Origin: Ostreococcus lucimarinus | Taxonomy: Eukaryota | Length of the DNA stretch: 64,000 nt | NCBI GenBank assembly: GCA_000092065.1 | Contig: CP000584.1 | Direction: 5' to 3' (one strand) | Shown here: in pieces, positions 822-47,299 of the stretch | Position numbering within the stretch: the stretch's first letter is position 1 | How the letters are laid out: each line of letters begins with the position of its first letter | Notes under the pieces: model-generated | What the model saw: only the letters and a program-made list of their open reading frames with translations | What the model was told of the DNA's origin: nothing | Databases searched by the model: none | Made by a program: the position numbers and the translations under genes

Positions 822-1150
822 ATGGGCAAGCCCTGGCTCGAGGGGTTCAAGTTCGCGACGTACCTCGCGGTGCCGATCGCGCTCACGGTGACGTTCGCGT
901 TCAATCCGGACAACCTGAACGGCATCATTCGAAACGTGCGTTTCGTTCGAGTCGGGCGCGACGCGACGCGCGCGACGCGCGACGCGCGCGCGCGGACGTC
1001 GACTGACGAAGCGCTCGACGTCGATCTCGGTTCGCGACGCAGCGCGCGTACGTGGTGTACCCGCCGGAGGGCCCGAAGCCGCCGCAATCGAAGCGAGCGC
1101 TGGACGCGTACCTGACGCGACGCGCGGCGGAGCGAAGACGCGAACGATGA
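822..1150 (+). CDS. PET100: PET100-like cytochrome c oxidase assembly microprotein, 2 exons (822..935, 1043..1150), 73 aa
   Basis: Exon 1 is ATG at 822 then MGKPWLEGFKFATYLAVPIALTVTFAFNPDNLNGIIRN, which matches the human PET100 pattern MGVKLEIFRMIIYLTFPVAMF... A GTGCGT donor sits at 936 and ACTGAC at 1002-1007, 36 nt upstream of the CGCAG acceptor at 1038-1042. Exon 2 encodes RAYVVYPPEGPKPPQSKRALDAYLTRRAAERRRER*, where YPPEG matches human WPPEK. The total of 73 aa equals the human length. The unspliced read-through ORF 723..1115 is in the track. Confidence 0.55.
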
Positions 1151-12276: not shown

Positions 12277-13968
12277 ATGCGCGCGCGCGCGCGCGCGCGT
12301 CGCGACGCCGACGACGACGACGACGACGACGCGCGCGCGCGTCGCGCGCGACGCGACGGCGATGACGGTTGGTCTGCCGCGGCGAGACTGCGCGAGGCGT
12401 CCGCGCGCGGCGACGTCGCGGCGTGGACGGGAGACGACGCGCGCGCGTTCGTGAACGCGCGCGGCGTCGACGCGATCGCGGGCGTCGGACGCGCGCGGGC
12501 GAGGGAGGCGGCGACGGCGCTGTCGCGCGCGCTGGGCGCGACGCCGCGCGCGGGCGAGACGACGTCGGCGCTGACGACGACGACGAGGGACGAGAGACGG
12601 GCGCCTCGCGAGGCGGTCGACGACGGCGATGGTGATGCGCGCGATGCGTTCAGCGGACGACCGGGCGTCGCGCGAGGGGTGGAGCTGGACGCGGAGGCGT
12701 TCGAGGGGATTTTGGCGGACGCGTCGGAGCGACGGGACGCGCGGGCGCTGTACGCCGCGCAGGTGCCGATGGCGCGCGTGGGCGAATTGGATGTCGATGG
12801 AACGCTTTACGACGAAGGGTTTCGGAGGTTTTGCGAGAGGCACGACGCGCAGAGACATTGCTGGGTCAACGGCGCGAAGCGGGCGACGACGAATTTGCAC
12901 TACGACAACTACGATAACGTTCTCGCGGTGTTGTCGGGTGAGAAGCGCGTGCGCCTGATTCAACCTTCGTTCTGCGCGGGTGGTGGTGAGAGGCCGTTTG
13001 GGGGGGTGTGCGCCGGCGCCGACGACTCGAACCACGCGTGTGGAAAACTCGAGACGGCGCCGACGTGGCGTTTCTTCACGCTCGGGCCGGGCGAATCCAT
13101 TTTTATTCCGAGCGGTTGGTATCACGAAGTGACGTCGGCCCCGTTTACAGTCGCGGTGAGTCATTGGTGGCGAAACGATTTCAACGCAGCTCTCGAAACG
13201 GTGCTCCGTGACGGGAGACGCAGCACGTATCACTTTCGCAGAGCGTTTGAATCGGCGCTCGACGTCTCCGTACACAACGAAACCGAGTCCTGTCGCGCCG
13301 TTGTTCGCGAAATCATGGAACGCGAGCTCGTCAAAAATAGGACGCTGACGTATAGAGTACTCGATGCGTACATTGGCAACTTCGTTCCGTGGGACGACGT
13401 GTTTGATTTTTTAACGCGTCGCGGAACGAGTTTGATCACAAAGGAAAATCGCCTCGAGCTCGGAACGGAGCGCGAGTCTCGCAAAGAGAACGAAAAAACA
13501 GTGAACGCATTTATCACTCGCATTTGGTTAAAAGACGGCATCGACCTCTCCGTCATGACTCGGTACTTGAAAGCGATGACGCCTGACAAAAACATCGCCA
13601 CTGCGTTGAGTCACGCGCTGCGCGAAGCCCAATCATCCGCGTCTCGTTCGACGGAGGAATCGGACGCCAGTCGTGCGCATCACCATCACGATTGCATCTA
13701 CGCGCATCACTTCGACATATTTTGGCGTGCCGTGACGACGGCGCTCGAATCGGGCGACGCCGAGTCGTGGGGAGCGCTGTACGCCGCCGCGCGGTGCGAA
13801 GAATTTCCACGAAACGACGACGTCGTGCGAGCGGTACTGCGCAACCAAAAATACGCCGTCGCATACCGCGCGCAAGCGCTTCTACAGGACAACTTAGAAG
13901 ACGACGACGTGTGTTTCACCGTAGACGTTCGAGTGCGTAGACGTGCGGAGCTCGCAGTAGACTTTTAG
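12277..13968 (+). CDS. JmjC (cupin) domain protein
   Basis: HCWVNGAKRATTNLHYDNYDNVLAVLSGEKRVRLIQP...GPGESIFIPSGWYHEVTSAPFTVAVSHWW is a JmjC cupin fold with the H.D...H metal triad. ATG at 12277; an alternative in-frame ATG at 12769 would remove the acidic, low-complexity N-terminus. Confidence 0.75.
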   Translation: MRARARARRDADDDDDDDARARRARRDGDDGWSAAARLREASARGDVAAWTGDDARAFVNARGVDAIAGVGRARAREAATALSRALGATPRAGETTSALTTTTRDERRAPREAVDDGDGDARDAFSGRPGVARGVELDAEAFEGILADASERRDARALYAAQVPMARVGELDVDGTLYDEGFRRFCERHDAQRHCWVNGAKRATTNLHYDNYDNVLAVLSGEKRVRLIQPSFCAGGGERPFGGVCAGADDSNHACGKLETAPTWRFFTLGPGESIFIPSGWYHEVTSAPFTVAVSHWWRNDFNAALETVLRDGRRSTYHFRRAFESALDVSVHNETESCRAVVREIMERELVKNRTLTYRVLDAYIGNFVPWDDVFDFLTRRGTSLITKENRLELGTERESRKENEKTVNAFITRIWLKDGIDLSVMTRYLKAMTPDKNIATALSHALREAQSSASRSTEESDASRAHHHHDCIYAHHFDIFWRAVTTALESGDAESWGALYAAARCEEFPRNDDVVRAVLRNQKYAVAYRAQALLQDNLEDDDVCFTVDVRVRRRAELAVDF

Positions 13969-14017
13969 TAGATAGAATCCAAAATCCTCAAACCGCCGCG
14001 CTCGAGTAGACATCGAC

Positions 14018-14776
14018 ATGTTCGCCCTGTCCGCATCGACGGCGCACGCGCCTGCGTTCGCGTCCTACCCGTCGCACCCGCGTGCGCGCGCGCGCGCGCG
14101 TCGCGTCGCGTCGTCGTTCGCGCGCCAGACCTCTGTCCCAATCGCGCGCGTTCGCGACGCCATCGCGCGCGCCTCGAGCGCCGATGAATCGAACGACGAC
14201 GCGAGTGATACCGTGACGAGTGGTTCTTCTTTCGATGGGTTCTCCACGACGCCTGGTGACGAGGACGCGCAGTACATCGCGGACATGGTGACGGAGATCA
14301 AAGACTGGCTCAAGCTGCTGTACGTCAAGCGAGAGATGTCGTTCAACGAAATCAAGCTCACGGTCGGGATCGAGGACCCGAGATTGGCGGAAAATCGAGA
14401 GCGATACGGGATTGAAGACGAGAGCGGGGTGAGCGCGGACGAAAAGGTGGAGACGCTTGAGATGATTGAACGAGGGGAAACGCCGACGGATGCGCGAGCG
14501 GTGTCGACGCTTTTGGAAGAGTTTAGGAATTGGCCGGGATTGGACGCGGTGGTGGATCAAAGCGTGGATGCCGGTCCTTCGAGGTATGAAGAAATCGCGA
14601 TGCGATCGGCGGGCATCAAGACGTCGAACCCGCGGCGGGTTCGAGCGAAAGAGGCGGAGGAGGAAAAGAAGGAGGGCACGATTTTTGGCTTCTTGCCGTT
14701 GTACCTGGTGAGCGCGGTGCCGATTTTCATCACCGTCTTCGCGGTCGGTATCATGTTCGTCAACTCGCTACAATAG
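14018..14776 (+). CDS. hypothetical tail-anchored membrane protein with a transit-peptide-like N-terminus
   Basis: ATG at 14018. The N-terminus MFALSASTAHAPAFASYPSHPRARARARR is Ser/Ala/Arg-rich, the middle is acidic, and the C-terminus carries a single TM, IFGFLPLYLVSAVPIFITVFAVGIMFV. No family recognised. Confidence 0.45.
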   Translation: MFALSASTAHAPAFASYPSHPRARARARRVASSFARQTSVPIARVRDAIARASSADESNDDASDTVTSGSSFDGFSTTPGDEDAQYIADMVTEIKDWLKLLYVKREMSFNEIKLTVGIEDPRLAENRERYGIEDESGVSADEKVETLEMIERGETPTDARAVSTLLEEFRNWPGLDAVVDQSVDAGPSRYEEIAMRSAGIKTSNPRRVRAKEAEEEKKEGTIFGFLPLYLVSAVPIFITVFAVGIMFVNSLQ

Positions 14777-44715: not shown

Positions 44716-45993
44716 ATGTACGGTGGCGATGAAGTGAGCGCGGTGGTGATCGATCTCGGGACGCACAGCGTCAAGGCGGGGTACGCGGGACAGGACACGC
44801 CGCAGCACGTGTTTCCGAGCGCCGTCGGCGAGTGCGCGAAGGGCGGGGACGCGGACATGACGGCGGAGGGTGAGAACGCGTCTGCGAGACATTTTGAGGT
44901 GGATAACATGGGAATTAGACGAGACGGGATGGAGGTGACGTCACCGTACGGAGAGAATGGGATGCTGGAGGATTGGGAGGCGGTGGAGGCGATTTGGGAG
45001 CACGCGTTGAAGAAGCGGTTGGCGTTGCAAACGGATGAGCATCCAGTGCTGCTCAGCGAACCCGTGCACAACTCGGATGCGGTACGCGCGAAGATGGTGG
45101 AGCTGATGTTTGAAAAGCACGCGCCGCCGGCGCTGTTTTTGGCGAAGAGTCCTGTGTTGAGCTCGTTCGCCGTCGGGAAAGCGTCGAGCTTGGTGATCGA
45201 CATGGGCGGTAAGCACACGACGGTCTCGGCCATTCACGACGGCTTTGCGCTTCAAAAGTCCGTCGTGCGCTCACCTCTCGGTGGCGAAGCTCTGACGGAT
45301 GTGGTTTTGAAGTATTTAGAGAAGAAAAAGGTTGACGTTCGCCCGCGGTACGCGTTTACGAAGAAGCAGAAGGGCGACGGCGATTTCGACGTCAAGGCGG
45401 TGAATCATCCCAAGACGACGGCATCGTATGCGCTGTTCAAACGTCGTGAGATCATAGAAGATCTTAAAGCGACCGTTTGCACGCTGGACGATCACACGTT
45501 TAACTCGGACGAGCACAAGAATGTGGCGGGCGTGACGTACGAGTTGCCGGATGGGAACACCATCGAGGTCGGCGTCGAACGATTCCAGATCCCGGAGTTG
45601 TTCTTCCAGCCCGAGATATTGCGGGAACTCAATGTGGACGTCCCCGAACTCGGTGAGCTCAAGTCTTTGAAGAGCATCCAAGAACTGGTTTTGGAGTGCA
45701 TCAACAACGCGGACGTCGACGTGCGAAAAGACTTGTGGGGCAGCTTGGTTTTGTGTGGCGGTAGTAGTATGTTCGCTAACATGCGTGAGCGATTGGAAGC
45801 GGCATTGTTCGATCACGCGCCGCAAAACGTAAAGACTAAGGTCGTAGCGAGCATGAACAGCGTCGAGCGTCGCTTCGCGACGTGGATCGGGGGTTCTATT
45901 CTCGCTTCTTTAGGCTCGTTCCAGCAGCTCTGGATGAGTAAGCAAGAGTACGAGGAGCATGGCGCGAACTTGGTTCAGCGCAAGTGTCCGTAG
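44716..45993 (+). CDS. ARP4: actin-related protein 4 (ARP4/BAF53-like, chromatin-remodelling ARP)
   Basis: ATG at 44716. MYGGDEVSAVVIDLGTHSVKAGYAGQDTPQHVFPSAVG is the ARP4 N-terminal signature. The actin-fold motifs LSEPVHNSDAVRAKMVELMFE, SLVIDMGGKHTTVSAIHDG, LCGGSSMF and FATWIGGSILASLGSFQQLWMSKQEYEE are present. Confidence 0.8.
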   Translation: MYGGDEVSAVVIDLGTHSVKAGYAGQDTPQHVFPSAVGECAKGGDADMTAEGENASARHFEVDNMGIRRDGMEVTSPYGENGMLEDWEAVEAIWEHALKKRLALQTDEHPVLLSEPVHNSDAVRAKMVELMFEKHAPPALFLAKSPVLSSFAVGKASSLVIDMGGKHTTVSAIHDGFALQKSVVRSPLGGEALTDVVLKYLEKKKVDVRPRYAFTKKQKGDGDFDVKAVNHPKTTASYALFKRREIIEDLKATVCTLDDHTFNSDEHKNVAGVTYELPDGNTIEVGVERFQIPELFFQPEILRELNVDVPELGELKSLKSIQELVLECINNADVDVRKDLWGSLVLCGGSSMFANMRERLEAALFDHAPQNVKTKVVASMNSVERRFATWIGGSILASLGSFQQLWMSKQEYEEHGANLVQRKCP

Positions 45994-46134
45994 TCTCGAG
46001 TGAAATAGCCTTTAATAATCGAGTGTCGAGTGTGATGTAACGTGAACTACAAAGTTGTTGCGCTCGTATCGACTTCGTTTCGGTTGAAAAATTACAGCTA
46101 TTCGGCGTCGCGTCTATGCGTCGTTCAATTCAAA

Positions 46135-46821
46135 TCATCGCTTCATGCGCTTTGCTCGCGAATCGGCGAGGCGTTGCTTCTTGAGATCATCGTAAATGTT
46201 TCTATACTTGTCGTAATCGATCCCGACGTCTTTCTCAGTCTCGGCGCCGATATCCCCCCACAGCTTTTGTTTCTTTTCCCCCGTGCCTTCGAGAACCGTC
46301 TCAAACAAGTTGTTGAATTTTCGTCGACGATCGAGCCAAGCCTCCATCCCTTTCAAAAACGCGTCCTCAATCTTCACGCGCTCACTCTCCGTGATCACCT
46401 CTCCGTTCGCCTTCGCTCGCCGCAACGGTTCGATCTTCTTCTCCAGCGTCTCGTTTTCGTCTTCGACGTCGCGTCTCGCCGCCGCCATCGCCTCCACGCT
46501 CTGCACGTTCCGCAGCGCTCGCAACTGCGATCGCAACCGCCCGACCTCCGCGCTCGCGCGCGCGTTTTCCTCGCTCACCGCCACCGCCTCCGCGCCCATC
46601 GCTCGCAGCGCCTCCGCGTCCGCGACCTCGTCGTCCTGCGTCGCGTAGTACACCTTTTGCTTGCCCGCATCCTTCACTCGAATCGCCCCGTTATCCACCA
46701 GCGCGTCCAAATACTTTTGCGCCAGCCCCTTCTTCACCCCGCTCGCGCCGAGCGCGTCCCCGACGTTCGTCGCGTTCAGCGGCCGATTCATCCGCGCCAC
46801 GTACGCGCGCACCGTCTCCAT
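46135..46821 (-). CDS. HOP2: homologous-pairing protein 2 (HOP2/TBPIP), meiotic recombination
   Basis: ATG at 46821. The winged helix is METVRAYVARMNRPLNATNVGDALGASGVKKGLAQKYLDALVDNGAIRVKDAGKQKVYYATQDD (compare TBPIP ...QNRPYSSQDVFGNL...KTLEQLAQQGKIKEKMYGKQKIYFADQDQ). Coiled coils and a basic C-terminus follow. Confidence 0.75.
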   Translation of the reverse strand: METVRAYVARMNRPLNATNVGDALGASGVKKGLAQKYLDALVDNGAIRVKDAGKQKVYYATQDDEVADAEALRAMGAEAVAVSEENARASAEVGRLRSQLRALRNVQSVEAMAAARRDVEDENETLEKKIEPLRRAKANGEVITESERVKIEDAFLKGMEAWLDRRRKFNNLFETVLEGTGEKKQKLWGDIGAETEKDVGIDYDKYRNIYDDLKKQRLADSRAKRMKR

Positions 46822-47299
46822 CTCGCGCGTCGATCCCTCGCCCGTTCAAATCGCGCGTCTTCGCGTTTCGTCGCGTCGTCGCGTCGTCTCCTTCGCGTCC
46901 GCGCGTCGCGCCACCGCGCGAACCGTCGACCTCGATCGTCCCACCGCCGTCGAGCGCTCGATCGTCGCGCGCGCGCGCGTGTGCGCGCCGTCGTCGCGCG
47001 CGCGCGGGGTGCCGTCATCGCGATGGCGTTCGAATGATCCGTGTTTTGGACGCGCGCGCCGATCCGCGCGCGCCGTTGGTCGATCCGCGCGCGACACACC
47101 GCGCGCGGCGCACGATCGGCGAGCGCGCGCCCGCGCGAGCGCGCCCGCGAACGACGCGAACGAATTTCCGCGCATCGGAACGCGCGGCGAACGCGCGCGA
47201 ACGACGCGCGCGGAAGACGGGAGCGACGCGCGGAGACGCGAGACGGGACGCGAGCGACGCGCGCGCGGAAACGACGAGAATCGCGCGACGACGGCGACG

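Follow-up and report, generated by a model that had tools for sequence, protein, structure and literature searches.

In the nuclear genomes of green algae, bicistronic loci have been described that combine a small first open reading frame (ORF 1), a short or overlapping inter-ORF interval and an absence of alternative AUGs, the second frame (ORF 2) being reached by leaky scanning (PMC7896298, PMC11291117). Initiation at the two frames is inversely related in these systems, stronger initiation at ORF 1 leading to lower ORF 2 output (PMC11291117, PMC7896298), and the stop and start codons overlap at some of these loci. A direct precedent for the locus considered here is the PET100 bicistron of Auxenochlorella protothecoides (UTEX250_A12.36865 / A12.36860), where PET100 is ORF 1 and where a 5'UTR of 15 nt, an ORF 1 of 201 nt and an inter-ORF of 22 nt without any intervening ATG are recorded (PMC11291117 and its supplements). 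Ostreococcus loci have been inferred in this published work solely by colinearity with Chlamydomonas loci (PMC7896298, PMC11291117), and neither the gene pair presented below nor the class Mamiellophyceae is among the loci that these two studies describe.

Here, we present a computational analysis of a 64,000-nt stretch of Ostreococcus lucimarinus DNA (contig CP000584.1, assembly GCA_000092065.1; hereafter the window), near the beginning of which the stop codon of a PET100 gene overlaps the start codon of a diacylglycerol kinase (DGK) gene. We consider it likely that the two genes form a conserved dicistronic transcription unit in Ostreococcus, in which DGK is reached mainly by leaky scanning, and this reading is proposed because the pattern matches that of the green-algal bicistronic loci, including PET100 of Auxenochlorella. 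As in the loci of Gallaher et al. 2021 and Duenas et al. 2024, a short ORF 1 encodes a small organellar protein, a larger and unrelated ORF 2 follows in the same orientation with hardly any interval or with an overlap, ORF 1 carries no extra AUG, and colinearity is kept among relatives. Unlike in these loci, the Kozak context of the PET100 ORF is not visibly weak, and the joint transcript is suggested by short-read contigs rather than by Iso-Seq. Compared with Auxenochlorella, where ORF 2 is a 3-beta-hydroxysteroid dehydrogenase/isomerase (3-beta-HSD) in a pairing conserved within Trebouxiophyceae, the Ostreococcus locus has DGK as ORF 2 and adds an intron inside ORF 1 as well as the stop/start overlap. 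Dicistronic mRNAs being already known in other green algae, the locus would add an example and no new principle.

Part of this architecture is also found in plant conserved-peptide and regulatory uORFs, with which PET100 shares the expectation that an upstream ORF reduces downstream initiation. Unlike conserved-peptide uORFs, PET100 is a bona fide pan-eukaryotic protein (PF09803) with stand-alone orthologues and is not confined to leaders; since PET100 relatives without DGK downstream exist, it is not the leader-only ORF by which that class is recognised. Termination-reinitiation at stop-start overlaps is known from viruses, namely caliciviruses and influenza B (M2/BM2), and the AUGA-type sequence that the stop of ORF 1 shares with the start of ORF 2 in the window is reminiscent of it. 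Unlike in the viral case, the overlap varies between lineages, and the ATG depletion of ORF 1 points to scanning.

The PET100 and DGK genes and their junction

Both genes lie on the + strand, downstream of a divergent neighbour, and the features of the locus are as follows (window coordinates):

670-821: divergent intergenic region, expected site of the promoter and of a short PET100 5' leader
822-935, + strand: PET100 exon 1, 114 nt, 38 codons (MGK...IIRN), holding the predicted transmembrane segment
936-1042, + strand: PET100 intron, 107 nt, phase 0, with donor GTGCGT, branch motif CTGAC at 1003-1007 and acceptor CGCAG
1043-1150, + strand: PET100 exon 2, 35 codons plus TGA, containing the conserved RAYVVYPPEGPKPP motif
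1147-1150, + strand: ATGA, in which the DGK start codon (1147-1149) overlaps the PET100 stop TGA (1148-1150)
1147-2475, + strand: DGK ORF, 442 aa, with DAGK_cat and DAGK_acc domains
2471-2475, + strand: TGTAA, overlapping the DGK stop codon TAA, the first + strand TGTAA after PET100

Read from its ATG at 822 on the + strand, the conceptual splice yields a protein of 73 aa, MGKPWLEGFKFATYLAVPIALTVTFAFNPDNLNGIIRNRAYVVYPPEGPKPPQSKRALDAYLTRRAAERRRER, which the original prediction had attributed to PET100 from its residue pattern. A profile search bears out this attribution: the PF09803 (Pet100) model matches the spliced product with 31.2 bits (E 2.7e-7) against a curated gathering cut-off of 24 bits, aligning residues 1-72 to model positions 1-68 of 73, whereas the unspliced read-through reaches 19 bits only and falls below this cut-off. 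Relatives of the protein carry either PF09803 or the JGI name 'protein PET100'. The 73-residue ORF thus belongs to the PET100 family, and its product would, by this family membership, be a mitochondrial complex IV assembly factor. An N-terminal hydrophobic helix, FKFATYLAVPIALTVTFAF, is followed by YVVYPPEG, which includes the (Y/W)PPE motif, and both are kept in all lineages. Exon 1 counts 38 codons in every lineage examined, and the dN/dS values of 0.05-0.42 obtained between lineages at a dS of 0.5-1.5 indicate purifying selection. The length of exactly 73 aa, which had been remarked on as that of the human protein, holds as a count; it is incidental, since the orthologues here span 69-73 aa.

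The downstream ORF displays an Arg-rich N-terminal extension, the DAGK_cat and DAGK_acc domains and a hydrophobic C-terminal tail; catalytic and accessory domains are both present (PF00781, 90.4 bits; PF00609, 159.6 bits), and a Pfam search of the ORF found no C1 domain. The nearest upstream stop in the DGK frame is located at 916-918, and between this stop and the catalytic domain the frame holds no ATG besides that at 1147. The PET100 stop therefore overlaps the sole in-frame DGK ATG, as had been read from the ATGA at the junction. On the other side of PET100, a coiled-coil gene reads away on the minus strand from its ATG at 669, which restricts the PET100 5'UTR to at most 152 nt; no ATG was found on the + strand between 600 and 821.

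Excision of 936-1042, as predicted, is observed in RNA-derived sequence. The Logan contig L001 (SRR28369223_118374, run SRR28369223; 2145 nt), 98-99% identical to the window, aligns to positions 144-935 and then 1043-2394, the PET100 intron being precisely missing, and the gene called on it translates to the same 73 aa as the conceptual splice. This contig passes from PET100 through the ATGA into DGK, up to window position 2394. It also takes in part of the divergent upstream gene, and is therefore composed of at least two transcripts. A second contig comes from a more distant lineage, whose PET100 is 70% identical: the JGI metatranscriptome contig L007 (1932 nt) comprises a spliced PET100, a 42-nt spacer and a complete DGK, and ends 32 nt past the DGK stop; a 174-nt intron is missing from it relative to the genomic contig L015 (99% identical). 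L007 looks like a complete dicistronic RNA; both contigs are short-read assemblies, and overlapping transcripts could also yield contigs with both ORFs. Compared with the genome, L001 and L007 are colinear save for the PET100 intron, with no further splice in the region. Other contigs of about 2 kb (L089-L092, L097) were discarded as a proxy for mRNA length, having proved to be unspliced genomic DNA that is uninformative on transcripts.

Conservation of the pair and ATG depletion between the two starts

Loci were gathered by a DGK-alignment scan of metagenome contigs, complemented by look-ups of individual proteins. A same-strand PET100 lies immediately upstream of DGK in all Ostreococcus-like loci recovered (about seven lineages), the pair being found in O. 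tauri and in at least five further Ostreococcus-like lineages, and the intron interrupts the same codon position in all of them, with the signals GTGCG..GACTGAC..CAG. Other Mamiellophyceae-like lineages lack the PET100-DGK pair, and PET100 precedes a different gene there. The PET100 stop and the DGK start are spaced as follows:

window and near relative L008: -4 nt (ATGA overlap)
L010 and L011 (and L012, by tblastn only): 0 nt (TAGATG)
L013/14: 4 nt
L017/21: 11 nt
O. tauri L002, and L097: 32-35 nt
L015/16 and L089/90: 37-42 nt

DGK opens in each lineage with an in-frame ATG that lies at the PET100 stop or shortly past it. In the orthologue alignment, its N-terminal extensions, rich in Arg, Ser and Thr, can hardly be aligned from one clade to the next. 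The O. tauri reference DGK (CEF97562.1) has 458 aa, the length expected from the ATG just after the PET100 stop, and L097 and P0043 read through from the ATG located 32-35 nt past the O. tauri PET100 stop. A G7-versus-G8 homopolymer difference between the O. tauri assembly GCA_002158475.1 (L002, 4530-4545) and L097 shifts the DGK N-terminal frame, which accounts for the missing DGK start and the 'partial' 255-aa DGK model of that assembly. The DGK start in the clade of L007 and L015 consists of four tandem ATGs.

Along the spliced path from the PET100 AUG to the DGK AUG (218-261 nt), no ATG occurs in any frame at 12 of the 12 genomic loci. The verified coding sequences of the window contain on average 2.7 ATGs per 218 nt, with 11% of segments of that length being ATG-free. 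Synonymous resampling gave a probability of 0.21-0.57 per lineage of finding no out-of-frame ATG, the product over five lineages being about 0.008, and since synonymous sites are near saturation (dS about 1), the absence of ATGs is not a matter of simple inheritance. In the introns, 10 ATGs were counted over 765 nt (seven distinct lineages), and this tolerance argues that the region is read after splicing. In addition, PET100 genes without DGK downstream carry internal Met codons. The exception is the RNA contig L007, with two ATGs (311-313 and 393-395) in excess of genomic L015, one out of frame in PET100 exon 2 and the other opening a 5-codon mini-ORF in the spacer; both start short ORFs that stop before the DGK start. 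The context of the PET100 AUG, GGGATGG (G at -3 and G at +4), resembles those of eight verified genes of the window and is not visibly weak. A Kozak comparison was abandoned as a supporting argument, the contexts of ORF 1 and ORF 2 displaying no consistent weak/strong pattern.

Expression of the two ORFs

In the dicistronic reading, one pre-mRNA would start within the 152-nt divergent region upstream of 822, lose the 107-nt PET100 intron and be polyadenylated just past the DGK stop. Most scanning 40S subunits would use the PET100 AUG, giving the 73-aa putative mitochondrial complex IV assembly factor, while some would bypass it and, by leaky scanning over 218 nt without another AUG, reach and use that of DGK. 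Terminating ribosomes could in addition reinitiate wherever the PET100 stop and the DGK start share nucleotides or are contiguous (ATGA in the window, TAGATG in a sister clade), and DGK output would be set and limited by PET100 translation. Co-transcription was one of the options that the original prediction had left side by side, and it gains support from the spliced contigs with both ORFs in two lineages, from the stop-start distances of -4 to +42 nt and from the ATG-free path. We infer a single RNA molecule carrying both ORFs, a DGK gene without its own promoter, and the translation mechanism outlined above.

For the 3' end of such an RNA, the TGTAA at 2471-2475 is a likely candidate poly(A) signal of the PET100-DGK unit: UGUAA is the signal used at some 30% of poly(A) sites in O. 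lucimarinus (PMC6413133), and the + strand carries no earlier TGTAA downstream of the PET100 stop. We dropped the motif as a strong argument, its enrichment at ORF ends in the window being no stronger than that of some control pentamers, and it is absent even after DGK in most sister lineages.

The pair could also be expressed as two overlapping monocistronic transcripts, with transcription of DGK starting inside PET100 (in exon 2, or upstream with splicing) and the PET100 mRNA ending within the DGK coding sequence, the ATGA being a by-product of extreme compaction. We hold this to be unlikely, yet deserving of serious consideration. The genome is very compact, and other same-strand pairs only ~50 nt apart need internal promoters; short-read contigs cannot tell overlapping transcripts from one RNA, and L001 demonstrably merges divergent ones. 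Variants of the poly(A) signal (TGAAA, TGTTA) are present inside DGK, UGUAA marks only about 30% of O. lucimarinus sites, and an ATG-free exon 2 and spacer would suit a short DGK 5'UTR equally well. A DGK transcript starting inside PET100 does not, however, explain why no lineage has an out-of-frame ATG in either exon 1 or exon 2 although synonymous sites are saturated, nor why ATGs are tolerated in the introns, as expected of a region read post-splicing. Furthermore, the spacing has not exceeded 42 nt in any of about seven lineages, despite a complete change of the flanking protein sequence; L007, which ends 32 nt after the DGK stop, has the appearance of a full dicistronic RNA; and PET100 of Auxenochlorella offers the direct precedent of a validated-type bicistron with PET100 as ORF 1.

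If the RNA is dicistronic, DGK might be translated by termination-reinitiation, coupled at the ATGA or TAGATG, and not by leaky scanning. Three clades have the stop and the start overlapping or next to each other (-4, 0 and 4 nt), ORF 1 is short (69-73 codons) and the PET100 AUG context is not obviously weak, all of which would suit such coupling; the remaining clades, by contrast, have spacings of 11-42 nt, and reinitiation would not need an ORF 1 free of out-of-frame ATGs, which ORF 1 is. Moreover, green-algal bicistrons respond in vivo to the Kozak strength of ORF 1 and to inserted ATGs in the manner expected of leaky scanning (PMC11291117). We therefore consider reinitiation as the main route to DGK improbable, and leaky scanning remains the preferred mechanism.

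The last option, also raised by the original prediction, is an unrecognised upstream DGK exon, or a PET100-DGK fusion through alternative splicing or stop read-through, so that the ATG at 1147 would not be the true start; despite this ATG being the sole in-frame one, DGK being in frame with PET100 exon 2 in two clades (L010, L015) with only a stop codon between, and the exact 442-aa model being absent from the protein collection, this is highly improbable, since the RNA contigs are colinear without an extra splice here, the relative frame varies among lineages (-4, 0, 4, 11, 32/35 and 37-42 nt), an ATG at or just after the PET100 stop precedes the Arg/Ser/Thr-rich extension in every lineage, and the 458 aa of the O. 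tauri reference DGK fit a start at the post-stop ATG.

Partners of PET100, annotation and flanks of the locus

PET100 is a single-exon gene in other Mamiellophyceae-like metagenome lineages (L003/L005/L006, 4001-4390; L094, 3121-3390). An ORF of 499 aa for a Glycos_transf_4 (MraY/GPT-like) protein follows it on the same strand after 46-123 nt, and the start-to-start span of 268-387 nt has one ATG only, the in-frame Met58. This arrangement may represent a second PET100-led dicistron with a different partner. That PET100 would repeatedly serve as a passenger ORF 1 in dicistronic mRNAs of green algae, with DGK, Glycos_transf_4 or 3-beta-HSD as partner depending on the lineage, is a tentative and rather doubtful extension. 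If true, dicistrons would arise again and again around very small mitochondrial proteins poor in Met, and the ATGA overlap of O. lucimarinus would add bacterial-style translational coupling to leaky scanning.

The exact 73-aa PET100 is represented in the protein collection searched by the gene call on L001 alone, with no NCBI or UniProt source, and an exact look-up of the 442-aa DGK in this collection returned no entry. Neighbouring O. lucimarinus genes do have such sources: six long ORFs of the window exactly match proteins of the collection, three of them under O. lucimarinus CCE9901 accessions (XP_001417238.1, XP_001417241.1 and XP_001417256.1). The reference gene models for PET100 and DGK are probably missing or different here. 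In O. tauri, the PET100 model P0004 (GCA_002158475.1) is a 110-aa partial hypothetical protein with a wrong splice. Full-text literature searches, with the supplements of Gallaher 2021 outside their scope, retrieved no report of the PET100-DGK unit or of the Ostreococcus locus.

Ostreococcus gene sets hereby gain a missing conserved gene for respiratory-chain assembly, and the PET100-DGK reading would fix the DGK start codon and extend to a lineage-specific locus of Mamiellophyceae the dicistronic expression of nuclear genes that is established in Chlorophyceae and Trebouxiophyceae. Mamiellophyceae comprise the smallest free-living eukaryotes, and their compaction makes a stop/start overlap possible. 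Microproteins of this kind will continue to escape gene finders that rule out overlapping or dicistronic models, and the downstream gene will be given a wrong start. O. tauri is transformable, and this compact and conserved locus could serve to compare leaky scanning with reinitiation.

The window as a whole is GC-rich (55-70%) and very compact. Close + strand ORF pairs occur within 12277-14776 and 44716-47037 (e.g. 12277-13968 then 14018-14776), same-strand members being about 50 nt apart (13968 to 14018, 45993 to 46042). Such pairs imply either that neighbouring genes contain promoters or overlapping transcripts, or that more transcripts span several genes; as their downstream member is unreachable by leaky scanning, internal promoters must be common in the genome. 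Downstream of DGK, a tRNA-Lys(UUU) gene with a 109-nt intron occupies 2527-2711 on the minus strand, 52 nt after the DGK stop, which limits the DGK 3'UTR to a few tens of nt. This tRNA was missed by ARAGORN with default settings and detected with the intron option and with Rfam RF00005 (45.7 bits). A (GCC)n run at 130-170 sits in the upstream minus-strand gene, where it codes for poly-Gly, and a GCGTTC hexamer repeat at 2365-2395, inside which contig L001 terminates, encodes AFAFAFAF just ahead of the hydrophobic C-terminal tail of DGK.
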